Positions 32,076-47,169 of a stretch of 64,000 bases of DNA are shown here, piece by piece. Both the position numbers and the translations under genes were made by a program. Origin of the DNA: a virus; IMG/VR virus record IMGVR_UViG_3300042863_002274; one strand, written 5' to 3'. How positions within the stretch are numbered: position 1 is the first letter of the stretch; every line of letters begins with the position of its first letter. The notes below the pieces were generated by a model. That model had not been told where the DNA came from and did not search any database. It worked only from the letters and a program-made list of their open reading frames with translations.

Positions 32076-32413
32076 GAGTAGATAACTCCCCGGCATCGTC
32101 TCCCGTCCATGCGAGAAAAGTCTCGTATGGATAGGGAATCCGATAGCCCCGCAACAGTCGGGGCGGAGCGGGGCTCCGTTTTCTGCGCTGGACTTGCCGC
32201 GGACGGGGGTTTGAGAGATAACCAGGGAGCTGGGCGCGGAGCTGGCAAAAAGCCAGGCAACAAGAGTAGATAACGCGTGTTTGTGTTTGTAACGAAACTG
32301 ACGGGTTGCTAAACGCCACTCGTTACAGGCAAAGGGTTTTAGAAGGAAATAAGAAAGTCTGTACCACGCTTTGTACAATTAAAATTAAAAAGCCAAAACA
32401 ACAAGGAGCACAC

Positions 32414-33007
32414 ATGAACACCCACCCAAATCACACAGCAGTCGTAGAGGCCATCAAGGCGCTACCTGCTTACACAGACCCACAGACATTCTTTGAGTCC
32501 GAGCTGGCCGAGTGCTTCTCAGACGAGGAGCTCGTAGCAGCTTTCGGTTGGGACGGAGAGAAGGCGCTCACACCAAAGCAAGCGGTCAAGGCAGTCAAAG
32601 CGCGTAACGAGGTTCGTAACGATGTCTACGGCTGGATAATTGAGGAAGGTGACCGCGAGCGCAATGCAGCCCTGGAAGCGAACGCCCGTGACCGCGAAGA
32701 AGCGAATCGCTGTGGTTGGCTCGTGGAAAAGAATTGGGAAGCAGCATTCCCGTTCACTCCGATTCCCGAGCTCTCGGATGAAGAGAACGCCCAATACGAG
32801 TTCGACTACTGGGAAGGCCTTGGCGAACGAGCTGCAGAGTCAGGCAACCGCTACGCAATCGTTGATTGCGGTGCGAAGGTCTCAGACGTCATCCGCAACG
32901 GCGTACGGGTTGGTTGGCAGTGCGAAGGTGGCCACCGCTCCATCAGCCTGGAGCACATGACGCAAGAAGAACAGGACGAGCAGTACCGCCTGGATTACGC
33001 CGAGTAG
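32414..33007 (+). CDS. Hypothetical acidic protein
   Basis: aaggag RBS before ATG 32414; stop lies in the motif. Confidence 0.75.
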   Translation: MNTHPNHTAVVEAIKALPAYTDPQTFFESELAECFSDEELVAAFGWDGEKALTPKQAVKAVKARNEVRNDVYGWIIEEGDRERNAALEANARDREEANRCGWLVEKNWEAAFPFTPIPELSDEENAQYEFDYWEGLGERAAESGNRYAIVDCGAKVSDVIRNGVRVGWQCEGGHRSISLEHMTQEEQDEQYRLDYAE

Positions 33008-33306
33008 ATAATCCACGACCCGCTCCCGTTCATGCGAGAACAACCTCGCGAAGCGGGGGCGTTAGTCGGTGACAGCCGGGGCTTTCACCCCAAAGGGGTG
33101 GCAAGCAGGAGGCAGAGCCCCGTTGGGAATGGGAGTGCTGGCGAAATGGGGGAGAGGAGAGATAAGTGTGATTGCGAGGGGGTTCAGACGGGGGCAATGG
33201 GGCTGACTTTGAGAGTAGATAACTCGCAAGCAAACAGAGTAGATAACTATGGGAAGCCTGTTCCAGCGGTGGTACAGTTAGGGCGTTCCAACTGAAAGGG
33301 GAAATC

Positions 33307-33786
33307 ATGACCACACAAGCCGACTTTGACAAGGCGTATGACTACTTGCGAGATAACCATACTCGCAATGACTTTTACAAAAGCCTGTTCATGCAATTTG
33401 AGAGCAAGGGCGTTCTGTCCGAGAAGCAAATACTCGCTGTTCTGCGAGGTATTGAGCGTGACCGCAATAGCGCAAAAGCGAGCCTTGACCCTGTTACCGA
33501 AATCGGTATGTACCGTGACGGCGAAACCGTTTACCGTGTCAAGCACAATAAGCAAAAAACAGCAATGTACGCAATGCGTTTCGTTCCCGAGGGTGCAACG
33601 AAATCAGACCGTTTCGTATTTGAGGGCGGTGCGTTCTATCGCCTTACTGCGAGTATGCGTATGACCGTTCCCGAGTGCGCTGAACTTGGGCAACATTTCT
33701 CAATGTGCGTTATCTGTGGGGCAGACCTGACTGACCCTAAGAGCGTTGCTAGAGGCATGGGTAGCACCTGTGCAGGAAAGGTGTGA
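33307..33786 (+). CDS. DUF6011-like Zn-finger protein
   Basis: CVICGADLTDPKSVARGMGSTCA; LSEKQ motif. Confidence 0.75.
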   Translation: MTTQADFDKAYDYLRDNHTRNDFYKSLFMQFESKGVLSEKQILAVLRGIERDRNSAKASLDPVTEIGMYRDGETVYRVKHNKQKTAMYAMRFVPEGATKSDRFVFEGGAFYRLTASMRMTVPECAELGQHFSMCVICGADLTDPKSVARGMGSTCAGKV

Positions 33787-33965
33787 GCGTCATGAATGAT
33801 GTATGTGCAAAGTGTGAGTGCGAACTCGCCTACTACGAGGCAAATGTAAGTTCACGCCTTGACGGTGCGTACTGCGCCGAGTGTTACGACCTAGCCATTG
33901 AGGGCTTGTGTGAGAGCGAGGAGAGCGTTCGCTACGAGCGTTCTGCCTACGGATACGGAGATTAA
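33783..33965 (+). CDS. Small Zn-binding protein
   Basis: CAKC...CAEC. Confidence 0.6.
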   Translation: MSVMNDVCAKCECELAYYEANVSSRLDGAYCAECYDLAIEGLCESEESVRYERSAYGYGD

Positions 33966-33968
33966 GCC

Positions 33969-34277
33969 ATGAATGAATTAGACGACACAGATACGCCCGT
34001 GCTGACGCATGAGGACTGCCTTGATTACGACAATCCTGACTCGCCTTGTGACGGTTCTGTGAACTACGAAATCACTATTCCTGTGCGCTACTACCGTTCG
34101 GGTGCGTTCGTTACCTTCCCACGCTGTGAGAAGCATTATGAGGCGTACTACGAGGCGTGTGAAGCCCGTGAGAACCGTGAGCGTGAATATCAAGCCAGCC
34201 TGTATTGCAAGCACGGCACCTATGTGGGTGACGCTTGGGGTGCTGACTACCTGTGTGGCAGGTGCGAAAGCGAATAG
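33969..34277 (+). CDS. Cys-rich hypothetical protein
   Basis: CLD...CDG...PRCEKH...CKHG...CGRCE. Confidence 0.7.
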   Translation: MNELDDTDTPVLTHEDCLDYDNPDSPCDGSVNYEITIPVRYYRSGAFVTFPRCEKHYEAYYEACEARENREREYQASLYCKHGTYVGDAWGADYLCGRCESE

Positions 34278-34325
34278 CCCGAAGTTATCTACTCTCATTA
34301 GCGTGATGGGAGTAGATAACGCTGT

Positions 34326-34628
34326 CTAGTGTCCTCTACGGAAGTGCCAGCCCTCGGGGTATTCCTCGGGGGTGTACTCGCCCTCGGGGAGAATGAGGTA
34401 GAGCGTGAACTCGTGCCACGCTTCCTCTGCGACCCAGCAACCGTTCCAGTCCTCGCAATACGGCAGGAAGCGTTCTGTGAACTCGTGCCACTCACGAGAG
34501 CGATAGCGAACACGGGTAGCGCAACGGCAATACGAGTCCACCTCGTAATCAAAGAAGTCACGCCTGTTCCATTCGTGGCGTGGTTTGAGCGTGTACGGGA
34601 GTGGGGTTCGTGAATAGTAAGTAGTCAT
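34326..34628 (-). CDS. Hypothetical protein
   Basis: TTGACA...TAAT-type promoter just upstream; probably leaderless. Confidence 0.6.
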   Translation of the reverse strand: MTTYYSRTPLPYTLKPRHEWNRRDFFDYEVDSYCRCATRVRYRSREWHEFTERFLPYCEDWNGCWVAEEAWHEFTLYLILPEGEYTPEEYPEGWHFRRGH

Positions 34629-34675
34629 ACTTATTACAAGGGGCGTTGCGTGTCGGAATGTCAAACGCCCAGCAA

Positions 34676-34866
34676 AGTTATCTACTCTCATTGACCCAGC
34701 AAGGAGATGGAGTTATCTCTCATCACCCCCATGCGCCTTCGGCTCGCCTTTTGGGGAACAGCCCCGCCATTGTCGGCGAACAGCCGGGGCTATCTCCATA
34801 AACTAAAAAGAATAAACGGGGGGGTGAGGGATAAGTTTGGGAAGTTTGTACCTACGCTGGTACAGT
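34676..34866. promoter_or_regulatory. Divergent, symmetric regulatory module
   Basis: TTATCTACTCTC and TTATCTCTC left of AGCCCCG-N18-CGGGGCT; GAGGGATAA and promoter to the right. Confidence 0.75.
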
Positions 34867-34908
34867 TCACAGGTCAGCAACTACCAACCCTGCTGGCAGG
34901 AGAGAAAA

Positions 34909-35355
34909 ATGTCCACAAAAAATATCAGCGTGAAGGTGAAAGTAAGTGTTCTTATTGACGCCTTACAAAAAGCGTTAGCAGAGCGTGAAGTACGCTTCTC
35001 AAAAAACGAAAAAACAGAAGCCGATTACAAAAAGGCGCAAGAAAAATGGGAAGCCGATTTTGTGAAAGCAGTTGTAGCACTCGTAAAGAACGGCAAAGCG
35101 AAAGCCAAAAAAGCAAGCGAGACACACTTCTACCGTCACGGTTCTGACGCGAGTACCACTACAACATCAGTAGAACTCGTACTAGAAGTCCCTAATTCTG
35201 TTATCTCCGCGAAGCCTGAAAGCCCTGATACCTACCGCGAGTGGGAATACCGCGCAGACAAAGACGCCTTGGAAAGTGCCATTCGCGTATTACAAATGTG
35301 TGACAACGAAGTAGTGTCCACAAGTACCTACCACAGCGTGGTGAAGTACCTCTAA
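34909..35355 (+). CDS. Hypothetical coiled-coil protein
   Basis: aggag RBS. Confidence 0.75.
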   Translation: MSTKNISVKVKVSVLIDALQKALAEREVRFSKNEKTEADYKKAQEKWEADFVKAVVALVKNGKAKAKKASETHFYRHGSDASTTTTSVELVLEVPNSVISAKPESPDTYREWEYRADKDALESAIRVLQMCDNEVVSTSTYHSVVKYL

Positions 35356-35388
35356 CCCCCTTTCACTCCATAAGAGTGCTTCACCCCT

Positions 35389-35431
35389 AAAAACGGGCTG
35401 GCTTGCCAAATGGTGAGTTAGCCCGTTTTTT
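35389..35431. terminator. Bidirectional terminator
   Basis: aaaaacgggctggctt...gagttagcccgttttt. Confidence 0.7.
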
Positions 35432-35435
35432 GTAT

Positions 35436-35609
35436 CTACTCTGTAATGGGAGTAGATAAGTCCGAAACGAGCCCGAACTTAGACCTAGCAAGAATGGCTC
35501 GCGTTTCGTCATTGGCTTCACGCACAAGAGTAGTGAGCCTGTTCGCCTCGCGAGTGAGTTGCTCTATTCGAGCCAATCGCTTCTCGTAATCCCATAAATA
35601 AATTGTCAT
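35436..35609 (-). CDS. 57-aa hypothetical protein not in the ORF track (MTIYLWDYEKRLARIEQ...PITE*)
   Basis: Manual translation; ends with GAG TAG inside a motif copy. Confidence 0.5.
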   Translation of the reverse strand: MTIYLWDYEKRLARIEQLTREANRLTTLVREANDETRAILARSKFGLVSDLSTPITE

Positions 35610-35802
35610 TATTCACCACTTATTTTTGTCCCTGATAGCGGGGCTTTTCCCCGAATGGGGCGAAAGTCGTACACGGGGGGTTTGAGAGATAACCGTACTC
35701 CTGTGGGGTTTGTCGGGTGGGAACTATTGAGAGTAGATAACTTTGGCAAGTCTGTCCTAGTGGTGGTACGATACGGGTGTTCACAAATGAAAGGGGACAC
35801 AA

Positions 35803-36267
35803 ATGGCAACACGAGCAATCGTGGCACACTCAACATCAGAGAGTGCTGGCACATGGCAAGGCAGGTATTCACATTGGGACAATTACCCAGAGCGAATGAC
35901 TTATGTATTAGGCGAATTAGTAGCAAGAGATGGAGTAGATAAGGTCATCAAGACACTTATCACCGATACGGCTTCATGGTCACAAGTAGAACCAATGGCA
36001 AAAAGTGGCGAGCCTAATCTCTATGAGGACAAAGCACTAATAGAGGGCTACGGATACGCACACACAGACATAGAACTAGACGACCCTTACGCATTGTTCA
36101 CGGATACAGATACAGATTTTGCGTGGTGTGATTATGTGTACATTATTCATCACGACTATTTGGAAGTTCGCACAATCGTCAGAGATGAAACGACACACCT
36201 ACTCACGACTGAACCTCTAAGCCGTCACGCTTGGGACACAATCGCAATCAAAGAGGTAACAGCATGA
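35803..36267 (+). CDS. Conserved phage hypothetical protein
   Basis: MATRA...YSHWDNYP...DYVYI pattern; GAAAGGGG RBS. Confidence 0.75.
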   Translation: MATRAIVAHSTSESAGTWQGRYSHWDNYPERMTYVLGELVARDGVDKVIKTLITDTASWSQVEPMAKSGEPNLYEDKALIEGYGYAHTDIELDDPYALFTDTDTDFAWCDYVYIIHHDYLEVRTIVRDETTHLLTTEPLSRHAWDTIAIKEVTA

Positions 36268-36551
36268 GAGTAGATAAGTACGCTCTACGCCGTTTCATAA
36301 TCTCTATCCCGTTAGTCATCACCTTGCTAGGTGCTTGCTGGTGGGGACTGAATGAAGTAATACAACAGCCTTCATTCTCTTGTGACACGCACATCGTGGA
36401 TATCAAAAGTGGGGACACTCTGTACAACATTGCTCACCGTCATTGTTCAGGTGACATTCAGGAAGTCATCAGCAGGCTCGTGTCAATCTACGGCACACAA
36501 CTAGACACATGGCAGACCGTTCACCTGCCCATCACCTCGCCTCGCCCCTAG
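36264..36551 (+). CDS. Membrane-anchored LysM-domain protein
   Basis: TM segment then VDIKSGDTLYNIA; starts MRVDK (encoded by the motif). Confidence 0.75.
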   Translation: MRVDKYALRRFIISIPLVITLLGACWWGLNEVIQQPSFSCDTHIVDIKSGDTLYNIAHRHCSGDIQEVISRLVSIYGTQLDTWQTVHLPITSPRP

Positions 36552-36578
36552 CACCACCACGCAGGGCGAGCCTGTTCG

Positions 36579-36874
36579 GAGTTATCTACTTTCATACCCC
36601 TTTCTATTAGAGAGTAGATAACTCCCCCCTCTCTTTTTTTGTTCGTTCGGGGGAATAGCCCCGCTGCGCTCGGTTGTCCCCGGGGCTTTTCCCAAAAAGG
36701 GAAAAGCGGAGACGACGGGGGTGGTGAGAGATAAGTCCTGCTCGTGAGGGCGAACGGAAAGACAATCCCTGACATCACCACAACCAATTCACGGTGGTGG
36801 AAGAAGCCTCGGAATGAGAGTAGATAACTTTCTGTCAAGCAATGTTGGAAAGTCTGTGGCAAGGGGTGTATGCT
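36579..36874 (+). promoter_or_regulatory. Complete regulatory module
   Basis: Inverted motif pair; AGCCCCG(36657)-N17-CGGGGCT; hairpin; GAGAGATAA; ACGGTGGTGGAAG; GAGAGTAGATAACT; promoter. Confidence 0.85.
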
Positions 36875-36933
36875 TGTGGCAAGCCACAAGCAACACGGCG
36901 TGTGGCGTTCATCTACCAGTGAAAGGGTATCCA

Positions 36934-37329
36934 ATGAACAAGGAAATAGACAAAGCAACCGAGGCGTTTCTAAACGCTCTCACAGCCAAAGAACAAGCCG
37001 AGCAGGCTCACGAGGAAGCACGAGAACTACTGGTTGCCGTGTACGCAAAGCATGGTGTTGAGACACTTGACTACGCTGAAATCAACATCAAACTCAGCCC
37101 GTCTGACCGTCGTTCATTTGACATTGAGAAGTTGCGTGACCTAATCAGCGCACCATTGTTCCGTACCATCACAAAGCCAAGCGTGGACACGCCAGCATGG
37201 GACAGAGCAGTTCGTGAAGGCAAAGTACCTACCAAGGTCATCAAAGCCGTTGTATCAGTCACATCATCTGTACGAGTGCTTGTACGACCAGCGAAGGGTG
37301 CAGTCAAGCCGACTGCCAAGACTGCCTAA
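36934..37329 (+). CDS. Hypothetical phage protein
   Basis: gaaagggt RBS. Confidence 0.75.
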   Translation: MNKEIDKATEAFLNALTAKEQAEQAHEEARELLVAVYAKHGVETLDYAEINIKLSPSDRRSFDIEKLRDLISAPLFRTITKPSVDTPAWDRAVREGKVPTKVIKAVVSVTSSVRVLVRPAKGAVKPTAKTA

Positions 37330-37462
37330 TCAAGCCGAGTAATTAGTGGGGGCGCAAGCCCCCATTGGTTCGGCAGGTTCAGAGTAGATAAGTCCAAGTT
37401 GTGAAAGTCTGTACTACGAGTGGTACGCTTCACATGTCATCCGCAAACGAAAGAGGTACGCA

Positions 37463-37909
37463 ATGGCAACAGCAGTAGTAATTAGGTCTAGTGGTGAGGT
37501 ATTCACACAAGACATTCCAACCGAGGACGGTCACACACTCATTCACGAAATCGTGGGTGGTTGGTTTGACTGTGTAAGAGGCGAGGAAATCGTTGGCTAT
37601 GTCCACGATGAAGGTTTGCTTATCGGTCTCCCCCTGAACGCTGTGGCGTCCATGTTGTTTCAGCGTCCACTTGTGGGTGACTGTGTTGTTATCGGCTCTC
37701 TCAATGAGCAAGGCGAGTATGACGGAGAGAACCACGATGTGCCCGTTGCGTTCACATCAGGACGCTTCTTTGACTTTGCAAAAGAAATTGCGGAAAGCGA
37801 AGTAATCCAAGCAATGCTTGCGAAGGCAATTTCCGAAATGGACTTTGCACCTACCATCGTGCCAATGGACGATGAGCAAATCAACGCATGGCTCAACGGG
37901 GAAGGGTAA
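37463..37909 (+). CDS. DUF3846-like protein
   Basis: IVGGWFDCV...YVHDEGLLIGLPLN...LVGDCVVIG. Confidence 0.75.
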   Translation: MATAVVIRSSGEVFTQDIPTEDGHTLIHEIVGGWFDCVRGEEIVGYVHDEGLLIGLPLNAVASMLFQRPLVGDCVVIGSLNEQGEYDGENHDVPVAFTSGRFFDFAKEIAESEVIQAMLAKAISEMDFAPTIVPMDDEQINAWLNGEG

Positions 37910-37913
37910 GAAC

Positions 37914-38231
37914 ATGGGAGTAGATAAGTCACCTACCGAGACATACCCCATGCGCATACTGAAAGTGGGTGACTCGTTCACCCCTAGCAGTGGCAGTAAC
38001 CCTGTCACCATTCTCGCATGCTGGCTATCTCGCCCGTCTGATATTGACGCCTACGCCGTGTGGGTGGTTCTCTGTCTGTTGCCACACAACACGCTCCACC
38101 CGTTCGCAGTGTGGAACGCCGTTGACCGTCCAGAGGGCTGGCACATGGAGAACGGCGATTACCGTGAGACCATCACCGAGGCTACGGCTCAATACGAACG
38201 GCGTGGTGGGCAGTACCACCTATCTGATTAA
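37914..38231 (+). CDS. Hypothetical protein
   Basis: Starts MGVDK (encoded by the motif). Confidence 0.65.
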   Translation: MGVDKSPTETYPMRILKVGDSFTPSSGSNPVTILACWLSRPSDIDAYAVWVVLCLLPHNTLHPFAVWNAVDRPEGWHMENGDYRETITEATAQYERRGGQYHLSD

Positions 38232-38241
38232 TTCACCCGAG

Positions 38242-38506
38242 ACTTATCTACTCTGCTTGCTCTCTCGGGGGTGAGTAGAGTAGATAACTTTTTTCTTGCC
38301 TTGCTTTGGGGGAACAGCCCCGCTGCGCTTGGGTTCGCCCGGGGCTATTGCCCGAAAGGGCAAAGCAGGCGCACACGGGGGAGACGAGAGATAAGTACGG
38401 CGAGGCGCAAGTGAACGGGAAGTGTGTCACCACGCCACAACACAATGACGGTGGTGGAAGAACAGAGTAGATAACTCGGGGAAGTCTGTCCCGTGTGTGG
38501 TACGCT
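38242..38506 (+). promoter_or_regulatory. Complete regulatory module
   Basis: Same element order as 36579-36874; inverted repeat at 38316-38346. Confidence 0.85.
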
Positions 38507-38542
38507 GACGGTGTTCCACTAACACCAATGAAAGGGTACCCA

Positions 38543-39013
38543 ATGGACACAGTAGCAATAGCAGTAGAGATAGAGAGTCAAATACACTCCCTACTCTCAA
38601 AGGGAGACGAGCCAACTCCGTTCGTCATGGAAGGCGCACACCTTTACGGTGTGGATTACACAGCCGAAGGCACGCCGAAACTCATGTTCATTGAGTCTCA
38701 CGCTGATGTGTATGACCTGCTTGACAATGACTACAACGCCTTGGTAGCAAGCGCATACGCTTGGACACTTATCGTCACGACAGGTTGGGCTGCACCACTC
38801 AATCCTGACGGCAACATTGACAAAGCACCTTCACAACACGCAGAGCGTCGTCGTGTTCGTCTGTCTTGTATCGCTAACCGTCAGAGCGTTGCCAGCGTGT
38901 TGCGGTTCGCTGATGAGCCTGATGATGTAATCACAGACGAAGGTAGCGCAAGCGGTTCACTCGCTAACGCAATCCAGCAGTTCGTACAGTCAGGCGCAAC
39001 CAAGAGCAACTAG
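38543..39013 (+). CDS. Conserved hypothetical protein
   Basis: TTGWAAPL...PSQHAERRRVRL; RBS. Confidence 0.75.
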   Translation: MDTVAIAVEIESQIHSLLSKGDEPTPFVMEGAHLYGVDYTAEGTPKLMFIESHADVYDLLDNDYNALVASAYAWTLIVTTGWAAPLNPDGNIDKAPSQHAERRRVRLSCIANRQSVASVLRFADEPDDVITDEGSASGSLANAIQQFVQSGATKSN

Positions 39014-39039
39014 CGCACAGTCCTAAGTTCCCCTAATCG

Positions 39040-39075
39040 GAAGTCCCCGTCAGTCCCCCCCTGACGGGGACTTTC
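39040..39075 (+). terminator. Intrinsic terminator hairpin
   Basis: aagtccccgtcag...ctgacggggacttt. Confidence 0.7.
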
Positions 39076-39360: not shown

Positions 39361-39399
39361 GTGTTTGGCAACAACTGCCATACCTGAAAGGGGTATCTC

Positions 39400-39990: not shown

Positions 39991-40127
39991 AAAGAGAGTA
40001 GATAAGTGGTAACAGAAACAGAACCCGATGAATGTCTCTACTGTGGTAGGGACGACCCTGAATCCAACTACACTTGGCATGAATACAATCGTGCCTGGAT
40101 TTGTGAGGACTGTATGGAGGAGCGACC

Positions 40128-40388
40128 ATGGAAGTAATTTTTAAGGATGAATTGGCAGAGTTGATTTGGGAGAATTATTACACTCTCGCTACTACTGCAA
40201 TAGAGGCGCTGCAAATTATTTGGAGCGAGTACGAAAGTATTGCTAATTGGGTCGCTTTAGAACACGATGTGTCCGAGCGCAAATTGCTAGAAACTCTTTC
40301 GCTTCTCGTGGTGAAGGTTGCGTCAATGTCCGTAGCAGACAGACAGACACCCGCCATGGATTATCTCCCCACAAGTAAGAGTAGATAA
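40128..40388 (+). CDS. Hypothetical protein
   Basis: ggagg RBS; stop TAA lies in the motif. Confidence 0.65.
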   Translation: MEVIFKDELAELIWENYYTLATTAIEALQIIWSEYESIANWVALEHDVSERKLLETLSLLVVKVASMSVADRQTPAMDYLPTSKSR

Positions 40389-40391
40389 CTC

Positions 40392-40709
40392 ATGTGGACG
40401 ACTATCGGTATCTATTTCTCTGTCTTGATGTCCTACATTCGTCACGCACTGTTTCATAGAGACCTGATACTGGTCGGGTCTGAATGTCGTGTTCGCTGGT
40501 CGTGGGAGCGCACACCGTCAGTGAGGGTTATCTCATTCGCCCCTGAACCAATGGAGCCATGTGACTTTGACATGTATGGGTGGTCTCTTGATTCAGTGTT
40601 CATGCATGTACCGAGCATGTGGCAGATGCTCTCGTTCGTGAGACGTAGGAGCAACGAGGGACACTCGTTCGTCAGCGTCTCACTTATCTACGCCTCTCTA
40701 TCAGAGTAG
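40392..40709 (+). CDS. Hypothetical protein
   Basis: Bracketed by two motif copies. Confidence 0.6.
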   Translation: MWTTIGIYFSVLMSYIRHALFHRDLILVGSECRVRWSWERTPSVRVISFAPEPMEPCDFDMYGWSLDSVFMHVPSMWQMLSFVRRRSNEGHSFVSVSLIYASLSE

Positions 40710-40925
40710 ATAACTTTCTTTCTTTTTGAGAACAGCCCCGCCATGCTTGGTCCGTCCCGGGGCTCTTGCTGAAACAGCAGAGCAGGATGAACGGGGGGGA
40801 TGAGAGATAAATCCGAAGAACGAAACGAAACCGAGCCGAGACGGAAAGAGAGTAGATAACTCTGTCCAACCCATTCACGGTGGTGGAAGAGGGCTAGGGG
40901 AAGTCTGTGCCACGGGTGGTACGCT
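40703..40925 (+). promoter_or_regulatory. Complete regulatory module
   Basis: Inverted repeat 40734-40764; GAGAGATAA; AGTAGATAA; ACGGTGGTGGAAG; promoter. Confidence 0.85.
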
Positions 40926-40955
40926 GTGTGAAGAAACCTACTGAAAGAGGAAGAG

Positions 40956-41702
40956 ATGCCTAACTGGTGTTACAACTACATGACCATCAAAGGAACAAAA
41001 AGAGAACTCGCCAAGTTCGTCAACGACATCACAGTTGCCGATGTCAAGGTTGAGGGAGACAAATCACGAGTTGTCGTTGAGTACGACCTGAACCAACTCG
41101 TACCACTTGACCCTCGGGCGTCAAAGGAAGTCAAAACCACCACCCCTGACGGAGTAGAAAAAGTATTTACTGCGTTCAGTACCGAAAGTGACGGATTTGA
41201 TGGATACTTAGACGCTGTTGCAACATGGGGTAGTAAATGGGGCGCATGCAATGTAGAGATAGACGACCCAACCTCTAAGGAGAAAAACCTTTCCATGCGT
41301 TACGAATCTGCGTGGAGTCCATGTGATGGTCTAATTTGCAAGATTTCTGCCATGTACCCACAACTAATGTTCGGAGTTGTTTCCACAGAGGAATCCAGCG
41401 CCTTTGTTGCGTGGTCTTTCTTTCATAATGGAGAGGTCATTGAGGAAGGTGGGCGTGACCCCCAGATGCTCACGCCTGAACTTGACGAAAAATGCAAAAA
41501 AGCAAACGACCCTGAAAATCCCAACTTGTCCGAGGACGAGGAAGATTGGTACGAATCGTTTAGTGAATGGGAACATCACTTAGTGGAACTCTGTGATGAC
41601 GAACTTGTAACTGTCATGACCGAATACCCAAAACATCTCGCATACATCAAACGGTGCGAAAAGAAAGGAAAAATGCCACAGCCGTTTATTTCATCAGTCT
41701 AA
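40956..41702 (+). CDS. DUF1281/Api92-like ferredoxin-fold protein
   Basis: MPNWCYN...WGSKW...YESAWSP. Confidence 0.75.
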   Translation: MPNWCYNYMTIKGTKRELAKFVNDITVADVKVEGDKSRVVVEYDLNQLVPLDPRASKEVKTTTPDGVEKVFTAFSTESDGFDGYLDAVATWGSKWGACNVEIDDPTSKEKNLSMRYESAWSPCDGLICKISAMYPQLMFGVVSTEESSAFVAWSFFHNGEVIEEGGRDPQMLTPELDEKCKKANDPENPNLSEDEEDWYESFSEWEHHLVELCDDELVTVMTEYPKHLAYIKRCEKKGKMPQPFISSV

Positions 41703-41741
41703 ATAAGAGTAGATAACTACACAAAAGAAAAGAGAACCCAA

Positions 41742-41969
41742 ATGGGAACTACAAAAAACACACAATCCATGGAAAACATTTCAGAATCAGTACGAACATA
41801 CAGAACCAAGATGGGCTGGTCACAATTAGAACTTGCTAATCGTGCAGGCTTGGACAGAAAAACTGTAAATCGTGTTGAGAACGGACGCTATGCACCAAGC
41901 GTTGAGACCCTACTTCTTGTAGGGGACGCACTTGGAGTGTCCATGAACAGTCTCCTAGGAAACAAATAG
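41742..41969 (+). CDS. XRE-family HTH regulator
   Basis: GWSQLELANRAGLDRKTVNRVENGRYAPS. Confidence 0.9.
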   Translation: MGTTKNTQSMENISESVRTYRTKMGWSQLELANRAGLDRKTVNRVENGRYAPSVETLLLVGDALGVSMNSLLGNK

Positions 41970-42089
41970 TAATGCTGGCATGTAAGGGCTTGTACCGACC
42001 CTTGCCTGTCAGAGTAGATAACAATTTGGAAGTCTGTACCGAGCATGGTATGGTTTCCAGTAACACCACGAGCCTGAAAGGGGCATACA

Positions 42090-42791
42090 GTGAAATCACA
42101 AAAAATAAACAAAGACCTTGATGATGACATCACCAAGATTCTGAAAGACCTTCTTTACAGAAGCGTCTACGCAAAGACAGAAGTTTGCAAGGACGAACCA
42201 ATGTCAGATAATCCACCATTATTCTTGGTTGCTTTTGAGAGTATTGAGGAAAATAACGAGGAACACGAAGCCTGCCTCATCAACCAGCAAGAACTCTCCC
42301 TGTCTAAGCCTTATCAGGTGGCAATGGTTCCGTTGATTCACAAAGAGGACATGTATGACGCTTACGATGATGTTGTTCGCTCACTACCTGTTCGCAAGTT
42401 TGAGTTCATTGCAGTAGTTGTTGAGGGCTACGGCAAAGACCTGTCACAAGAGACAGACCAGTCAGAAGTCAAGAAAATGAACAAAGGTGACTTGGAGAAG
42501 GAATACAAAGAAAACCCATTCACCGATGTTCGTGAAGGACTAATGATGAGTGCCGTTGATTGGAACATGACTGGCGTATGGGGCGTTGCCAACATGTACC
42601 GCTATGACGACACGGGTGTACCGACATTTGATGAGCCGTTCTTTACTTCCTACCCGTATGACGACAATGACGAGTACGGACGCTTGGTTGATGTAATGAT
42701 TGCTACTGCTCAATACATGAACATCGCTACACAGACTCTCAAATACACAGACATACTCAAAAAAGCACCCAAGAGAAATAAAGGAGAGTAG
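42090..42791 (+). CDS. Hypothetical acidic protein
   Basis: Promoter TTGGAA(42026)-17-TATGGT; GAAAGGGG RBS; stop lies in the motif. Confidence 0.75.
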   Translation: MKSQKINKDLDDDITKILKDLLYRSVYAKTEVCKDEPMSDNPPLFLVAFESIEENNEEHEACLINQQELSLSKPYQVAMVPLIHKEDMYDAYDDVVRSLPVRKFEFIAVVVEGYGKDLSQETDQSEVKKMNKGDLEKEYKENPFTDVREGLMMSAVDWNMTGVWGVANMYRYDDTGVPTFDEPFFTSYPYDDNDEYGRLVDVMIATAQYMNIATQTLKYTDILKKAPKRNKGE

Positions 42792-42935
42792 ATAACTCAT
42801 GAATCAAGAAGTAATCGCCCTAGTGGACAAGGCAATAGCCAACTGTTCAGGAAGAGACAATGTGTCATCACATGAAATGATGGACATGCTCTTAGACATT
42901 CGCCAACTACTAAACAAAGAAACGGAAGTACCGGC

Positions 42936-43130
42936 ATGAGAACAAAAACAGACCTAATCGGTAAGCGAGTCAGGCTTGATGCATGCACCGACCCTTACAC
43001 GAAACTACAACACGGAGACGAAGGTGTTGTAATGGACATAGATGACATTGGAACAGTCCATGTACTGTGGGACAACGGCAGCATTCTTGGCTTGATAGAA
43101 GAAGAGGGTGACGCTTTCTCTCTTTTGTAA
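42936..43130 (+). CDS. DUF4314-like protein
   Basis: GKRVRL...DPY...GDEGVV..IDDIGTVHVLWDNGS.LGL. Confidence 0.8.
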   Translation: MRTKTDLIGKRVRLDACTDPYTKLQHGDEGVVMDIDDIGTVHVLWDNGSILGLIEEEGDAFSLL

Positions 43131-43249
43131 GGGTGAGCGTTTCTGATACTCTCTAATAAAATAAAAAATCACCCACTAAGTTTGGAGTAGATAAGTTTCC
43201 CCCTTTCAGGCTTGTCTACTCCATTAGGGTCAAATAAAAAGGAATAAAA

Positions 43250-43738
43250 ATGAACTTCACGATTGAGTTTGTAAATGAAGAGAACAAGCGTATGCATGAT
43301 TCGTTCTACAAGAAATACAAAACAGACAAAGCACGAATGAAGCAGAGTGCAGAGCAATACCAAATGAGTGAGACTGTTCGTGGTCTTTACATCATGGAGA
43401 AGTGGCACAGAGAAGGACGCAACGGAAGTCCAGTAGCAATGCTGAAACATTATTCGCTAGGTACAGATGTGATGTCATCGTTCATAAAAAAGTATTTATC
43501 TACTGTTGTTAGTGACGAGCAAGCCGAGGACAGTAAGCCCGAAAAGCGCAAAGATAAATGGGGAGCATTTGACAAGTGGACTACCGAACACACTGGCGAA
43601 CAATTCTCCACAGACCAACTTGTTGAGATTGCTGGATTCTCATATCAGACGACACTGAAATATGTCAGCGAATCTCCACTGTTCATAAAAATCAAAAAAG
43701 GTTTGTGGCAAGTGGCTGATGTTCAGAGGAAGAAATAA
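43250..43738 (+). CDS. Hypothetical protein, possible C-terminal wHTH
   Basis: aagga RBS; C-terminal FIKIKKGLW. Confidence 0.7.
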   Translation: MNFTIEFVNEENKRMHDSFYKKYKTDKARMKQSAEQYQMSETVRGLYIMEKWHREGRNGSPVAMLKHYSLGTDVMSSFIKKYLSTVVSDEQAEDSKPEKRKDKWGAFDKWTTEHTGEQFSTDQLVEIAGFSYQTTLKYVSESPLFIKIKKGLWQVADVQRKK

Positions 43739-44019
43739 GAGAGTAGATAACTTTCTATTTTTTAGACAATAGCCCCGCTTCGCTTGGTTCCCCCCGGGGC
43801 TGTTGCCCACAGGGGGCGCAGGCACAAGGCGCAGAGAACGGGGGGGTGAGAGATAAATCGGCGCAACGCAAGCGCACCGAGCCGAGCAAGAGGGAAGCGG
43901 AACTGTCCAACACATTGACGGTGGTGGAAGGGGCGCAAACAGAGTAGATAACTCCTCGCCAAACAGAGTAGATAAGTCTGTCAATAGATTAGGGAAGTCT
44001 GTACCGAAGGTGGTATGGT
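43739..44019 (+). promoter_or_regulatory. Complete regulatory module with a tandem motif pair
   Basis: Inverted repeat 43771-43801; caaacagagtagataa twice at 24-bp spacing; promoter. Confidence 0.85.
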
Positions 44020-44059
44020 GAGTTTGTCCAACCAACAACGCTTACAAAGGAGCAATACA

Positions 44060-44791
44060 ATGGATACAGTAACAACCACCCAAGAGGCACTACCGCAGTG
44101 CTGGAAAGATGTCAAGGACGCACTTGACTCAGGAATTGACAGAATTATTCTGTTCGGACCTGCTGGAACAGGCAAGACCTATGCTGGTCTGTCATTCGGA
44201 GACATTGAGGCTGGCGCACACCGCCTAGTCTGCACCGAGGACATGACAAACATGGACGTAACTGGTGGCTTCATGCCATCATCATCAGGTGGCTTCCAAT
44301 GGCTTGACGGCTCTGCTCTCAAAGCATGGAAAGGCAACGGAACCAAAGGTGGTCGTCTCATCGTGGACGAAGTAGATAAGGCTGGTGGCGATGTTTTCGC
44401 AACACTGCTCGCCATGTTGGATTCACCTGAATCCGCAACATTCCAACACCCTGAAAGTGGTGAACTGGTGCGCCCATTGGAAGGCTTCTCTGCTGTGATG
44501 ACCACGAACATTGAGAACATGAGCGAACTGCCAACAGCACTCGCTGACCGTTTCCCAATCCGTGTTCGTATCAACGAGCCACACCCGAACGCACTTCTCC
44601 GCTTGTCTCCTGACTTGCGTGGATACGCAGTCCGTATGGCTGACGGTGGTGAGGCTCGTATCTCATTGCGAGCATTCATGGCTCTTGACAAACTGCGTAA
44701 GGCAGTCGGTATGGAACGAGCATGCCAACTCACATTCGGTAATCGTGCCAAGCAGATTCTTGACGCTCTTGCAGTGGACGGAGTGAAATAG
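44060..44791 (+). CDS. MoxR/CbbQ-NirQ-like AAA+ ATPase
   Basis: GPAGTGKT, LIVDEVD, MTTN, ALADRF. Confidence 0.88.
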   Translation: MDTVTTTQEALPQCWKDVKDALDSGIDRIILFGPAGTGKTYAGLSFGDIEAGAHRLVCTEDMTNMDVTGGFMPSSSGGFQWLDGSALKAWKGNGTKGGRLIVDEVDKAGGDVFATLLAMLDSPESATFQHPESGELVRPLEGFSAVMTTNIENMSELPTALADRFPIRVRINEPHPNALLRLSPDLRGYAVRMADGGEARISLRAFMALDKLRKAVGMERACQLTFGNRAKQILDALAVDGVK

Positions 44792-44793
44792 CA

Positions 44794-46341
44794 ATGGCTT
44801 ACTCACCTGCTATCAACACAGGTACGGGCAAGGCGTTCCCCAGTAGAGTAGATAACTCTGAAAGGGGGGCGCACCGCCCTGAACCTAACATGCTCGGACG
44901 CAAGGACATGGAACACGAACGCTGGACAGTTAGAGATTGTCTGCCCGTTCGTGGCGAGCCTTGCACCGACTTGACCAACCGTGTCATGTTCGCACCATCA
45001 ACCGATGGTGAAATGGAGCGTGTAGTGCGTGGACATGAAATGATGCATGCGAAAATATCTCCGACACCTGAACAGATGACTCAATGGGTAGGACGCAGTA
45101 TTGCTTCCGAGACAGCGATGATTGTTGTAGAGGAATTGCGAGTGAACTACTTGTGTCAAACTGCTGGATTTGATGTCAAGAAGTTTCTGTCTGACGGAAG
45201 TGAATTGGCAACTGGCGAACACCTTGCGAAGTCAAACGATTGGGCAGGCGCAGTTGCTATGTGTATCGCTACTGCGAACACCGCTGGTCACAAGACATTC
45301 CTGAACGGAATCCGCAGGCACAATCGTGAGTGGGGTGAAGCATTGGTGACTATCGGCAAACGAGCAGTGAAAGAAATGCGTAAATCTCACAGTGGACGCA
45401 CACTCGCAAGTACCGACACTTACGAAGGTATCGCTCCATACGGATTCACTCACACCGAGCGTCTTGCAGAATGGGTGGACAGGCTTGCCACATTCCCACC
45501 ACCACCAAAGAACCCAAACCCAAAGGGCAAGGCAGGCGAGGCAAAGGGAGTAGATAAGTCCGAAGGCGAAAGCAAAGAGGAACATCACGCCGAGTACGAG
45601 GAATCCAAAGAGGGTGACAAAGATGGAAACCCACACGGCAAAATCTCTCCTGCACCTGCTGGTGGCGCACACGGTTGGGCTGAACTTATTATCAGTCGTG
45701 AACCAATGCCACGCCACCACTACGGCTCAATGGGCAAGAAGCGCATTGCTACGAACATGGGGCGCAGACCACGCCGACTACACCGTTACATGACTGACCC
45801 TGCGAAGCGTGTCTTTGACAAGACGATTCGTGGCAGTGGTGGAATGGTAATCATTGACGCAAGTGGTTCTATGTCATTCACTACTGAACAGATTGCAGAA
45901 ATCATTGAGAACGCACAAGGCGCAACAGTGGCTATCTATTCTGACCGAGGCAGGAAAGACATGCCGAACATGTGGGTAGTTGCTGACAAAGGCAAGATGG
46001 TTGAGAATGTGGAATACATTGACTACGGACACGGTAACGGCGTGGACTTTCCTGCGATTGAGTGGGGCGTAAAGAATCGCCAGTACAAGAACACACCTCT
46101 TGTATGGGTGACAGATGGTGGAGTCTGTGGAGCGCATGACGGGTTCTCTGAACTGTTGTCAATGCAATGCATTACTTACGCTCGCCAGCACAACTTCATT
46201 GTTGTTCCCCACATTGAGGGAGCGATAGAGCAGTTACGCAATCTGAAAGTGCATGGCAAGGCTCACAGCGTGTATCCTTACATGTTCCACCGCACCTACC
46301 AAAATTACATGGGCGTACCTCTCCCCGAAAAAGAAGAGTAG
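44794..46341 (+). CDS. HExxH metallopeptidase-like plus vWA (MIDAS) protein, CobT-like partner of the AAA ATPase
   Basis: HEMMH...EE; charged linker; IIDASGSM...VTDG. Confidence 0.85.
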   Translation: MAYSPAINTGTGKAFPSRVDNSERGAHRPEPNMLGRKDMEHERWTVRDCLPVRGEPCTDLTNRVMFAPSTDGEMERVVRGHEMMHAKISPTPEQMTQWVGRSIASETAMIVVEELRVNYLCQTAGFDVKKFLSDGSELATGEHLAKSNDWAGAVAMCIATANTAGHKTFLNGIRRHNREWGEALVTIGKRAVKEMRKSHSGRTLASTDTYEGIAPYGFTHTERLAEWVDRLATFPPPPKNPNPKGKAGEAKGVDKSEGESKEEHHAEYEESKEGDKDGNPHGKISPAPAGGAHGWAELIISREPMPRHHYGSMGKKRIATNMGRRPRRLHRYMTDPAKRVFDKTIRGSGGMVIIDASGSMSFTTEQIAEIIENAQGATVAIYSDRGRKDMPNMWVVADKGKMVENVEYIDYGHGNGVDFPAIEWGVKNRQYKNTPLVWVTDGGVCGAHDGFSELLSMQCITYARQHNFIVVPHIEGAIEQLRNLKVHGKAHSVYPYMFHRTYQNYMGVPLPEKEE

Positions 46342-46532
46342 ATAAGTTTTCCCGACAGGGGTGGTGGCTCCGACAGGACACCATCACCCCTGAACGGAGA
46401 CGGTGCATGGAGTTATCTACTCTATGTACCACCACTACCCCAAGCGTAGAAGTTTCATACTCCTTTGATTCTGCGTGAGGGGTGGTGGCAGGGGGATAAA
46501 CAAAATTGACTACTACGAAAAAATGGATTTTT

Positions 46533-46736
46533 ATGACAGAGCCAACTGAATCACAATTACTAGATGACTTGTTCGCAAGTATCACAACCGCAATGCGCTA
46601 CTACTCTGCGATACGAGACGAGATAATCACAGACACATACACGCCACAGAAGGCGTACGAGGACTACGAGAACCTGACATGCAATGAAGGCAACAACATT
46701 GTGTCCGTTCTTGCTGAACTCGCTGATAGGAAGTAG
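46533..46736 (+). CDS. Hypothetical protein
   Basis: ORF. Confidence 0.55.
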   Translation: MTEPTESQLLDDLFASITTAMRYYSAIRDEIITDTYTPQKAYEDYENLTCNEGNNIVSVLAELADRK

Positions 46737-46845
46737 TCATGGAAATACTGCTACTCGTTCTTGCGTTGCTCACAGAGCCTTACACGCTCGTCTCGTTCGC
46801 TATCTGCATGGCAACACTAAGAGTAGATAACTCTTTCTACGCCAG

Positions 46846-47169
46846 TTACTTCTTGCGATTGGCTCCGAAGATATTTGAGTCAAACGAACGCCACACCACA
46901 TACAGTACTGCCAAGCCAAAGGAATCCCACACGCCCACGCTCACGCTCACGAGTCCAGCCGAGTGTGCGATAGCGAGAGCAAGGAACAGCAAGGCAGCAT
47001 GTGTGACAACAAGCAGAATGAATCCAGCAAACACATTTCCTTCTTTTTTGGCATGAGCCCCGCCAGCGGCGGCAACCCTCGGGGCTGTTGGCGTATCTCT
47101 CATAACTCTCGGAAAACTGTTCTTGGCTTTAAAAGAATATTTTCCGTCTTTATCAAATCTGTCATTCAT
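46846..47169 (-). CDS. Two-TM membrane protein
   Basis: Hydrophobic helices; contains an AGCCCCG-N17-CGGGGCT copy. Confidence 0.6.
   Translation of the reverse strand: MNDRFDKDGKYSFKAKNSFPRVMRDTPTAPRVAAAGGAHAKKEGNVFAGFILLVVTHAALLFLALAIAHSAGLVSVSVGVWDSFGLAVLYVVWRSFDSNIFGANRKK

Follow-up and report, generated by a model that had tools for sequence, protein, structure and literature searches.

The p4 protein of phage phi29 represses early promoters and also activates a late one. Its site has the form 5'-AACTTTTT-15 bp-AAAATGTT-3' (PMC1904284, partial text), and long-spaced inverted half-sites occupied by two protomers have a precedent in it. In the T4-type phages RB49 and phi1, each PeSL cassette combines a host-type promoter with a G/C-tract stem-loop, and close relatives differ through gain and loss of cassettes; the authors suggest that the GGGG...CCCC motif may be read by a DNA-binding protein (PMC2839356, partial text). 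The 17-bp palindrome TGTTCGG-NNN-CCGAACA of Cluster O mycobacteriophages exceeds 30 copies per genome, and many of the copies are intergenic (PMC4351075, as far as the available part of that text goes).

The window considered here, that is, the whole analysed stretch of 64 kb, belongs to a large uncultured lake phage of actinobacteria that encodes WhiB. The early gene block of this phage contains long intergenic modules that are repeated, and inverted pairs of the words AGCCCCG and CGGGGCT sit in them. We consider it somewhat probable that CGGGGCT is a double-stranded-DNA recognition word for one conserved sequence-specific regulatory phage protein acting on early transcription.

The repeat in the window

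The pattern AGCCCCG-N{10,30}-CGGGGCT has eight matches in the window, compared to 0.01 expected, and none of 100 shuffles reached this number. The search recovered all the pairs reported in the first-pass annotation, seven with 17-bp spacers and one with an 18-bp spacer at 34760. Widening the spacer to 0–80 bp yielded no further length in the window beyond 17 and 18. The pairs, with no strand assigned, are:

32145–32175, inverted pair AGCCCCG-N17-CGGGGCT
34760–34791, inverted pair, spacer 18
36657–36687, inverted pair, spacer 17
38316–38346, inverted pair, spacer 17, just after a terminator-like site at 38244–38287
39200–39230, inverted pair, spacer 17
40734–40764, inverted pair, spacer 17
43771–43801, inverted pair, spacer 17
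47056–47086, inverted pair, spacer 17, 129 nt past the stop codon of the candidate regulator gene

The heptamer itself (CGGGGCT/AGCCCCG, both strands) occurs 30 times in the window, against 4.35 expected and at most 13 in the shuffles, and all its copies are confined to positions 20382–50677. Sixteen copies form the eight pairs and 14 are lone. The six lone half-sites named earlier are all among the latter, and eight more are added here, at 20382, 23897, 29201, 29918, 33077, 33116, 48548 and 50671.

Shuffling the spacers while keeping the arms showed no folding advantage of the eight actual sites (z from +0.2 to +1.5), in agreement with the claim that the spacers are not self-complementary. 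They had also been described as variable in sequence. This holds for their drift between relatives, but within the window the spacers are not free, as five of eight share a common element: CYNYGCTYGGTYNCCCC is common to the spacers of 36657, 38316, 40734 and 43771, and is present on the other strand in 39200. The consensus common to the four spacers indicates that the modules are of common descent.

The pair at 47056, previously placed inside a coding sequence, does lie within the mechanically called reading frames 46846–47169 (minus strand) and 46963–47301 (plus strand), but these may or may not be coding. The product of the former is hydrophobic, its start could fall after the repeat, and it has a protein match solely in a 93%-identical relative.

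Elements adjoining the repeat

The pairs are placed between gene ends and the next promoters, in the company of several recurrent elements:

36726–36734, plus strand, A motif: a G run, 2–3 nt, then GAGAGATAA; 38 nt past the right arm
22025–49558 (span), no strand assigned, B motif GAGTAGATAA(C/G), 56 exact copies
36685–36707, plus strand, hairpin 2, opening with the GCT of the right arm
38344–38366, 39228–39253 and 40762–40783, other copies of hairpin 2
39332–39360, plus strand, host-type module promoter: TTGGAA, 17 nt ending in TGG, then TACATT
35743–35772 (plus strand), 30652–30681, 29844–29873 and 29093–29122 (minus strand), further host-type promoters

Exact copies of the A motif number 17, spread from 23846 to 48679; the ones at 32213, 36726, 38386, 39269, 40802 and 43848 are paired with repeats. 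In 15 of the 17 cases CGGGGCT, paired or lone alike, is situated 29–46 nt upstream (mode 37–38); one of the remaining copies has only an AGCCCCG-oriented word in this range, and the other has none. The distance shifts by half turns, which would be odd for a rigid protein–protein contact. Outward-facing A motifs flank both sides of the pairs 34760 (34713–34721, minus strand; 34826–34834, plus strand) and 39200 (39162–39170, minus strand; 39269–39277, plus strand). Lone heptamers accompanied by the A motif or a similar word are:

22047–22053, plus strand, CGGGGCT; A-like AAGAGATAA at 22088, 34 nt further
23897–23903, minus strand, CGGGGCT, 42 nt ahead of the A motif 23846–23854
24559–24565, minus strand, CGGGGCT, 37 nt ahead of the A motif 24513–24521; hairpin 2 at 24540–24561
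28658–28664, plus strand, CGGGGCT, 33 nt ahead of the A motif 28698–28706; hairpin 2 at 28662–28682
29918–29924, minus strand, CGGGGCT, 34 nt ahead of the A motif 29875–29883, which directly abuts the promoter 29844–29873
30752–30758, minus strand, CGGGGCT, 43 nt ahead of the A motif 30700–30708
31566–31572, plus strand, CGGGGCT; A-like GAGAGATAT at 31608, 35 nt further
35639–35645, plus strand, CGGGGCT, 38 nt ahead of the A motif 35684–35692; hairpin 2 at 35643–35667

The B motif is asymmetric, oriented with the genes, and often positioned on stop codons or just ahead of the −35 box. Both A and B motifs differ between lineages, whereas the heptamer is invariant in every lineage. The stem of hairpin 2 changes from copy to copy in a covarying manner, unlike the adjoining arms.

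In the window phage a host-type promoter and the G/C-tract pair share intergenic regions at distances of 45–190 bp; in a 90-kb relative the same two elements are 3–43 bp apart. The relative also has a canonical terminator (stem and T run) directly ahead of a pair, and boxes of the CGAAC-N4-GTTCG kind beside the pairs. We take LexA boxes in Gram-positive bacteria to be of this form. Where genes run co-directionally, the right arm is always part of a hairpin or has one ahead of it, formed either with the left arm or separately with the loop AACAACC.

Gain or loss of cassettes between close relatives is seen in the modules. The locus L147 of a close relative contains a pair, hairpin 2 and the A motif, while the equivalent position in the window, 37382, has only the B motif and a promoter. 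Compared to a 170-kb relative, the gene order is mostly kept, with three shared orthologs found at other places.

Terminator scan

An intrinsic terminator consists of a G+C-rich stem followed by a T/U run, with a loop of about 3–8 nt. A consensus terminator scan flagged none of the eight arm-to-arm hairpins and found no passing T run after any of them; after the right arms come TTTT, ATTG, CTTG, GTTG and similar words. The sole match inside a pair was a shorter inner stem at 32159–32178, and the best terminator-like site of the scan (38244–38287, just upstream of the pair 38316) is an inverted pair of B motifs with a T run. An intrinsic terminator was thus rejected as a candidate, given a loop of 17–18 nt rather than 3–8, a stem that is invariant and not covarying, and the T run absent from the scan. 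The first-pass annotation had likewise argued against a plain terminator, and the unflagged arm hairpins, the unpaired 17-nt loop and the invariant arms bear this out. At the gathering score of Rfam 15, no RNA family was found at the repeat, the sole match in the window being a tRNA at 14161–14234.

Conservation of arms and spacers

We surveyed 80 related phage loci together with the window, counting unique pairs. Perfect pairs number 151, against 13 with one mismatch, which in six of the 13 affects only the outermost base; double changes preserving the pairing are absent among these 164 unique pairs. In seven pairs orthologous to those of an 80–92% identical relative, 0 of 98 arm bases and 17 of 120 spacer bases differ, as counted by eye and with the eighth pair, 32145, excluded due to its unrelated spacer in the relative. 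The arms are identical even in lineages with unrelated spacers and flanks.

The spacer length is 15–19 bp in 132 of 167 unique pairs (mode 17), 24–27 bp in 26, and longer in nine; moreover, several lineages have 10–18 heptamers and zero pairs. A broad distribution of spacers had been named in advance as evidence against a site of fixed geometry. It is absent in the window, but at the family level the two spacer classes, the longer spacers and the pairless lineages go half of the way towards it. The modes of 17 and about 25 bp differ by 8 bp, which is not a helical turn, so that a single rigid dimer cannot account for the two. What is conserved is the seven-base word (core CGGGGC) rather than a rigid 31-bp site. 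Of the dimeric 31-bp protein site proposed at first, what survives is a word read by its sequence, likely by a protein, and what has to be given up is the fixed geometry.

Some lineages depart from the simple pair. In L264 the heptamer forms part of a loop closed by covarying stems, in L241 and L230 it pairs with GCCCC located 2–4 nt downstream, and one variant with a 29-bp spacer lengthens the stem (z −3.1). The L264 stems, together with the hairpins at the right arm in co-directional arrays, mean that folded RNA or single-stranded DNA may still play a part.

Avoidance elsewhere and promoter phasing

Outside the early block, the core hexamer (GCCCCG and CGGGGC) was seen three times in three genomes against 24.1 expected under an order-3 Markov model, whereas its one-base variants were near expectation in the same genomes. 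Within genes, sense CGGGGC was observed twice (11.0 expected) and sense GCCCCG not at all (8.6 expected). Avoidance in both orientations relative to genes points to reading at the DNA level.

In two lineages of relatives the heptamer is positioned at 10-bp steps from early promoters. The distances to the −35 box in one lineage are 3, 10, 12–14 (10 cases), 23–25 (4), 33–34 (2), 43 (2) and 67, and in another, 17–19 (5) and 28–29 (4), although this ladder is drawn from paralogous modules, that is, from events that are not independent. No such phasing with the host-type promoters holds in the window phage or its near kin, where these promoters and the heptamer are 45–190 bp apart.

Candidate regulator

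Circumstantial evidence makes the following gene the best candidate for encoding the reader of the word:

47215–47592, minus strand, candidate binder gene; its 125-aa product combines an HA domain with a sigma-70 region-4-like helix-turn-helix at the C-terminus
47609–47622, CGAAC-N4-GTTCG box just upstream of this gene

The protein with the HA domain and helix-turn-helix is present in 79 of 80 loci. Its overall identity falls to 40%, but most of the predicted recognition helix is invariant, and 13 of 25 invariant alignment columns belong to the helix-turn-helix (L100, I103–D105, L109–R113, H115–I117). In the lineage L243 the heptamer is situated within the 17-bp spacer of the promoter of the candidate gene itself. 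Sequence and fold searches with this protein yielded only a generic likeness to helix-turn-helix proteins.

Proposed function and alternatives

The invariant arms, drifting spacers, lone words, purging and phasing together argue for a DNA word read by a protein and not for a simple terminator. Protein binding, the identity of the binder and the direction of its effect we infer from these patterns. The word would mark boundaries of small transcription units in the early gene block. About half of the copies are paired head to head at 17 bp, and such a 31-bp site might accept two protomers or a dimer, for which p4 of phi29 on its 8+15+8 bp site would serve as a model of occupancy. The word seems to work unpaired as well, since 14 of 30 heptamers are lone, the A motif is accompanied by paired or lone words, and pairless lineages exist. 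In the reading to which we commit, the bound protein would hold down or shut off the adjoining early promoters and block read-through between units; our second choice is that it would activate these promoters.

A bolder version, which we regard as doubtful but worth stating, is that the heptamer is an address word, with one protein reading about 30 copies and switching the 30-kb early block as a unit. The candidate would again be the HA and helix-turn-helix protein, whose own gene has a CGAAC-N4-GTTCG box in the clade of the window phage. At paired words with the 17-bp spacing, complexes that bend the DNA would clamp or release the host RNA polymerase at nearby promoters, and exclusion of the word from both strands of the other approximately 140 kb would ensure that the switch affects nothing else.

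Turning from this version back to a protein-read word in general, its main competitor is a folded hairpin, in RNA or single-stranded DNA, serving as an attenuator, terminator or 3'-end stabiliser between early units, maybe with an RNA-binding protein. The location of the pairs between gene ends and the following promoters suits it, as do the stable 7-bp G+C stem (−11 to −17 kcal/mol in the window), the replacement of a missing left arm by another hairpin upstream of the right arm, and the foldings in L264, L241, L230 and the N29 variant; moreover, PeSL G/C-tract stem-loops halted transcription in a reporter (PMC2839356, partial text). We nevertheless find it rather unlikely. Not a single compensatory arm change is seen in the 164 unique pairs, although the neighbouring hairpin 2 covaries, and the 17-nt loop is unstructured while being constrained in length. 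No T run passing the scan follows the arm-to-arm hairpins, true terminators adjoin the pair in the 90-kb relative, and Rfam has no match at the repeat. Outside the early block even single hexamers, which are unable to fold, are purged whichever way they are oriented. Such two-strand purging would also be expected of a cut or crossover site, and thus of some other DNA transaction: site-specific recombination shuffling the cassettes, an enzyme that nicks or cuts at the word, or a mark of the early block as the first to enter the cell. The block of pair, hairpin 2 and A motif at L147, absent at 37382, and the three displaced orthologs of the 170-kb relative agree with this possibility, which we consider improbable. 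Among the scanned window proteins (51, 50 and 16) no recombinase, integrase or nuclease family was seen, and we know of no recombinase core site that fits a 17-bp spacer, so the recombination site suggested in the first-pass annotation is not retained. Further, a 30-kb region with approximately 30 active crossover sites would be highly unstable, whereas the gene order is mostly kept, and the promoter phasing and constant company of the A motif point to transcription.

The reader of the word could also come from the actinobacterial host, the phage borrowing for its early genes a host regulator or a component of the host transcription machinery. These genes are needed before phage proteins exist, the boxes beside the pairs of the 90-kb relative are of the CGAAC-N4-GTTCG kind, and an invariant heptamer next to varying phage-specific A and B motifs suggests a reader that does not evolve with the phage. 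The invariance, however, is explained equally well by a helix-turn-helix protein that the phages universally keep and whose recognition helix is for the most part invariant. At least one pair with a 15–19-bp spacer is present in 135 of 401 Actinomycetota genomes, with a maximum of eight (only pairs were counted, and the sample may lack the true host), and these low counts show no regulon-like excess; many of the listed pairs are in fact hairpins with the interior paired throughout. We thus hold a host reader to be as improbable as a DNA transaction. Finally, the common descent of modules seen in the four similar window spacers would allow the repeat to have no function of its own and to be carried along by multiple copying of the whole intergenic module. 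But the arms are identical amid unrelated spacers and flanks, the difference between 0 of 98 arm bases and 17 of 120 spacer bases goes the same way, and copying cannot explain the purge elsewhere; arm conservation and purge bring this explanation close to refuted, and we give it hardly any credence.

Comparison with known systems

The repeat resembles an intrinsic terminator in being a G+C-rich inverted repeat after gene ends. The likeness to PeSL cassettes is in the repeated intergenic units among small early genes without an assigned function (PMC2839356, partial text). As described in the available part of the same paper, the PeSL stems are variable, lie in or beside the promoter and act as terminators, whereas our repeat has invariant arms, which also occur singly, and a 17-nt loop, and its pairs are 45–190 bp from the host-type promoter.

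With the stoperators of Cluster A phages our repeat shares the general scheme of one phage protein and dozens of short sites over an actinobacteriophage gene block (PMC9283540, PMC6550527, partial texts). It is the B motif, with 56 copies turned with transcription and located on stop codons, that closely matches the description of stoperators (PMC4351075, partial text). The stoperators are asymmetric and oriented with transcription, while the heptamer is used either way round and frequently in inverted pairs; it also keeps its sequence across lineages, whereas stoperator-like motifs (the B motif in this phage) vary with the lineage. The Cluster O palindrome is similar in having invariant 7-bp inverted arms in an actinobacteriophage, but its spacer is 3 bp rather than 15–19 or 24–27 bp, and its sites are found genome-wide, a third of them in genes, while the word considered here is restricted to the early block and purged elsewhere (PMC4351075, partial text).

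No homolog of p4 (PF05464) was found in three relatives, one of them rated as 100% complete. The sites of p4 differ from the repeat in having A-tract and not G+C-rich arms (AGCCCCG, CGGGGCT), and in numbering four, compared to about 30 words per genome with single arms common and two spacer modes. The fixed spacer of p4 corresponds here to 17 bp in seven and 18 bp in one of the eight window pairs, and to 15–19 and 24–27 bp family-wide. On the other hand, both systems have short inverted arms set far apart with the same total of 31 bp (8+15+8 for p4, 7+17+7 here), and in both the sites are situated upstream of phage promoters, the relation to the face of the helix being seen here in the relatives.

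Pairs and lone copies of the heptamer in the window

The pattern AGCCCCG-N{10,30}-CGGGGCT has eight matches in the window against 0.01 expected, and hence the inverted pairs of the heptamer CGGGGCT (AGCCCCG on the other strand) described in the first-pass annotation are real. The spacer is 17 bp in seven of the eight pairs and 18 bp in one, as described there, and no other spacer length occurs in the window when lengths of 0-80 bp are searched. The spacers are indeed not self-complementary: none of the eight sites folds better than versions in which the arms, that is, the two heptamers, are kept and the spacer is shuffled (z from +0.2 to +1.5). The description of the spacers as constant in length and variable in sequence holds for the length, but not for free sequence, as four or five of them have a common consensus. 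The pair at 47056, assigned to a CDS in the first-pass annotation, lies in DNA that is only possibly coding.

The heptamer itself is present in 30 copies on both strands, against 4.35 expected, all of them within 20382-50677. Sixteen copies are in pairs and 14 are lone; the lone half-sites named earlier are the same intergenic modules without the left arm. Rfam yields no family match in the region, and GenBank no near-identical phage record for window positions 30000-48000.

Intergenic modules of the early block

The early block of the window (~22-50 kb) contains numerous small genes. The intergenic regions between them are 250-400 bp long and are made of repeated parts. In the gene direction, the module consists of:

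22025-49558: B motif, GAGTAGATAA(C/G), asymmetric, 56 exact copies (for example, at 32076, 36612, 40704 and 43741)
after the B motif: AGCCCCG-N17-CGGGGCT pair
beginning with GCT of the right arm: hairpin 2
then: A motif, a G run followed by GAGAGATAA, 17 exact copies
after the A motif: second B motif
then: host-type promoter with TTGGAA, a stretch of 17-18 nt that ends in TGG, and TACATT or TACGAT
then: ribosome-binding site and start codon

The B motif follows the orientation of the genes; in many cases it lies on the stop codon (TAG or TAA inside the motif) or 1-4 nt before the -35 element. In places two inverted B motifs have a T run after them, and 38244-38287 ranks first among the terminator-like sites scanned. 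The stem of hairpin 2 varies between copies and is significant in 20 of the 45 unique modules of three genomes. CGGGGCT is situated 29-46 nt upstream of 15 of the 17 exact A motifs, most commonly at 37-38 nt; one of the remaining two has only the AGCCCCG-oriented word in this range, and the other has none. The pairs at 39200 and 34760 have an outward-facing A motif on each side.

The A motif was considered as a host-type -10 element, and this was rejected for the window phage, since the sixth position is not T in any of the 17 copies; its equivalent in lineage L203 reads TGnGATAAT. A T7-type RNA polymerase (PF00940) was considered as its reader and was not found in three relatives, a weak result, as the control genomes gave no match.

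Early promoters of the window and of a 170-kb and a 90-kb related phage have a conserved TCTGT(A/C)C immediately downstream of the -35 element (for example, 39332-39360); this word may be a further contact point. One more motif upstream of promoters, T(G/C)ACGGTGG(T/C)GGAAG, is seen across lineages:

36793-36808: copy in the window, approximate
38444-38459: copy in the window, approximate
40877-40892: copy in the window, approximate
43921-43936: copy in the window, approximate
47190 region: copy in the window
L264, L261, L265, L246 and the 90-kb contig: copies in relatives

Three promoters of the 90-kb relative have their nearest upstream heptamer 116-128 bp away, and this motif stands in front of each of them. 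Finally, in a close relative (locus L147) the pair, hairpin 2 and the A motif stand as one complete block between two B motifs, where the window at 37382 has only one B motif plus a promoter. The block was apparently gained or lost via recombination between B repeats.

The phage and its family

The window encodes WhiB (55.5 bits), which serves as a marker for phages of actinobacteria according to PMC10914622. The DNA runs containing the stretch are labelled as lake water. The genes of the window include tRNA, SSB, SNF2 helicase, DUF932, DUF3846 and replication-initiator-like genes, and also:

518-9547, +: protein of 3009 aa that carries GNAT acetyltransferase and RNase T-like exonuclease domains and a long stretch of pentapeptide repeats

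The 170-kb phage encodes a 2583-aa relative of this protein. The closest "cellular" matches of WhiB (loci L266-L269, 58-76% identity) are on short contigs from bins labelled Pseudomonadota, Gammaproteobacteria, Thiobacillus and Verrucomicrobiales; probably, these contigs are phage DNA misbinned into unrelated phyla.

The sequences of relatives for the family comparison were taken from IMG/VR, which contains contigs syntenic with the window at 80-92% identity, plus the complete 170-kb and the 90-kb relatives, whose common proteins with the window are about 40-75% identical. With the AAA ATPase of 44015-44791 as query, a family set of 80 loci was obtained, every one of which contains the heptamer. 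Among 167 unique pairs, a count inflated by related contigs, the spacers are 15 (2 pairs), 16 (33), 17 (51), 18 (39) and 19 bp (7), or 24 (7), 25 (16), 26 (2) and 27 bp (1), and in nine cases exceed 27 bp. Lineages L230, L241, L246, L256 and L264 have 10-18 heptamers and zero pairs; in the pairless lineages a short complement directly follows the word, or the word is in the loop of covarying stems. The heptamer is constant across lineages, whereas the A and B motifs are lineage-specific, the B versions being AGGTGTAGGTAAGTC, AGGTAGATAAGTC, AATAGATAAGTC, ACTAGATAAGT, AAAGGATAATGTAA, CTAATAGATAACT and TTTGAGATAGGTTGCA. B-like motifs in the related phages amount to 30-48 copies per 20 kb.

Thus the fixed geometry of 31 bp suggested by the first-pass annotation is not the conserved unit, given the family spacers of 15-19 and 24-27 bp or longer and the existence of pairless lineages. 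The functional unit moves from the 31-bp palindrome to the half-site. A spacer fixed within a single genome can mislead, and it was the family comparison that corrected the unit.

Evidence for a proposed protein reader of double-stranded DNA

Perfect unique pairs number 151, against 13 with one mismatch, which in six of the 13 is at the outermost base only; no compensatory double arm change was found among these 151 and 13 pairs. Between the window and its near relative (80-92% identity), arm bases differ at 0 of 98 positions and spacer bases at 17 of 120, as counted by eye in seven pairs, the pair at 32145 being left out for its unrelated spacer in the near relative. In these comparisons it is the arm sequence that is conserved, and not the pairing. 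A single arm suffices, as seen from the lone copies, from their spacing to the A motifs and from the pairless lineages.

Outside the early block, the core hexamer (CGGGGC or GCCCCG) is almost absent: 0+1 copies against 12.1 expected in the 170-kb relative, 0+1 against 4.3 in the window and 1+0 against 7.7 in the 90-kb relative, summing to 3 against 24.1 (order-3 expectation). Its one-base variants are near expectation. Within genes, both orientations are avoided, with 2 sense CGGGGC against 11.0 expected and 0 sense GCCCCG against 8.6. Avoidance on both strands argues against an RNA signal, for which avoidance on one strand is expected. Moreover, the purge of lone hexamers makes a signal requiring a hairpin unlikely, since for such a signal single hexamers should do no harm. 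The repeat also lacks the features that define an intrinsic terminator, and so the earlier claim that it is not a simple RNA terminator stands.

Steps of one helical turn are a sign of a protein having to face RNA polymerase. The distances between the heptamer and the promoter were collected with lineage-specific promoter words, as generic regexes across lineages were too sparse (12 and 39 rows) and noisy. On the coding strand of the 90-kb relative, a terminator (stem and T run) is followed by the pair, sometimes a CGAAC-N4-GTTCG box, and the promoter. The nearest heptamer is there at 3, 10, 12-14 (10 cases), 23-25 (4), 33-34 (2), 43 (2) and 67 bp from the -35 element. The second lineage has 17-19 (5) and 28-29 (4) bp; the third, less clean, has 23, 26, 32-34 (5), 40 and 45 bp. 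The Rayleigh test at 10.5 bp gives p about 3e-7, dominated by the modal class, and the modules are paralogous, so that the cases are not independent.

The candidate reader

Of the window proteins at 33-55 kb that have a DNA-binding domain, a single one gives hits in almost every locus (79 of 80):

47215-47592, -: candidate protein, HA domain (40.0 bits) and sigma-70 region-4-like helix-turn-helix (26.6 bits, cut-off 24.1), true start at the methionine of MDN...
L100, I103-D105, L109-R113, H115-I117: invariant helix-turn-helix columns

In 28 aligned homologues with identity down to 40%, 13 of the 25 invariant columns fall in the helix-turn-helix. The structure is predicted as two domains and a linker (mean pLDDT 83.9). 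Sequence comparison with solved structures yields only generic helix-turn-helix likeness, the best whole-sequence match (E 4e-5) being a designed repeat protein, and the fold search with the protein gave no match at E <= 0.001.

In lineage L243 the heptamer occupies the 17-bp spacer of the candidate gene's own promoter, and a heptamer or pair is situated at most 260 nt past the stop of this gene in 17 of 32 lineages, the window pair at 47056 among them. In 13 of the 32 lineages the gene start is preceded, at 27-30 nt, by a CGAAC-N4-GTTCG box, which has the form of the LexA boxes of Gram-positive bacteria; this suggests control by the host SOS repressor. The boxes are:

47609-47622, 52568-52579 and 53063-53074: boxes in the window
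90-kb relative: boxes beside several pairs

That the candidate protein reads the heptamer is a lead and not a proof.

Proposed mechanism and alternatives

The repeat is real, the word is functional, and the site is a phage operator-like one. A sequence-specific protein would bind every heptamer, the paired form holding two protomers, and when bound would control adjacent early promoters and insulate transcription units. Overall, we consider a DNA site somewhat better than an even bet. Within it, repression, shut-off or roadblock is a tentative assignment and activation a doubtful one; the former is favoured because the purge of the word from late regions suggests that the bound protein harms transcription passing through.

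Several observations do not fit smoothly. Host-type promoters in the window phage show no phasing with the pair, from which they are 45-190 bp away, and the A motif is found at distances that differ by half turns. The two family spacer modes are 8 bp apart. In co-directional arrays without the left arm, another hairpin (loop AACAACC, then GGGCGTTAGTC) takes its place. GCT of the right arm is common to hairpin 2. Given these observations, a folded nucleic acid may play a role beside the protein site; that the pair acts purely as a hairpin we regard as improbable. Alternatively, the reader of the DNA site could be a host protein; however, among 401 Actinomycetota genomes scanned none has more than 8 pairs, and many of the pairs listed there are ordinary hairpins with interior pairing throughout.

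Significance and comparison with known systems

To our knowledge, large phages of freshwater actinobacteria are almost solely metagenomic, nothing is known of their gene timing, and their hosts are abundant and mostly uncultured. The seven-base word is a concrete handle here, being invariant across a family of 145-170 kb phages, confined to the early block, purged elsewhere, and accompanied by one universally kept helix-turn-helix protein as its candidate reader. If the link to the candidate is true, this would be a simple example of one protein controlling a region of a phage genome, and the word would be a useful marker by which to locate promoters and early regions in related phages from metagenomes.

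The nearest known architecture to the pair is the phi29 p4 site, 8+15+8 bp with two protomers (PMC1904284). The present site differs from it in arms, protein and copy number, and no homologue of the phi29 p4 family (PF05464) was found in three relatives. Unusual traits of the present site are the invariance across the family, the confinement to one region with the strand-symmetric purge elsewhere, and a pairing that is not obligatory, with a spacer of about 17 or about 25 bp. The window B motif resembles the stoperators of Cluster A mycobacteriophages. The logic of one protein and many sites is reminiscent of the stoperators of actinobacteriophages and of their Cluster O palindrome (PMC4351075), and PeSLs are like the cassette-type intergenic modules seen here (PMC2839356).
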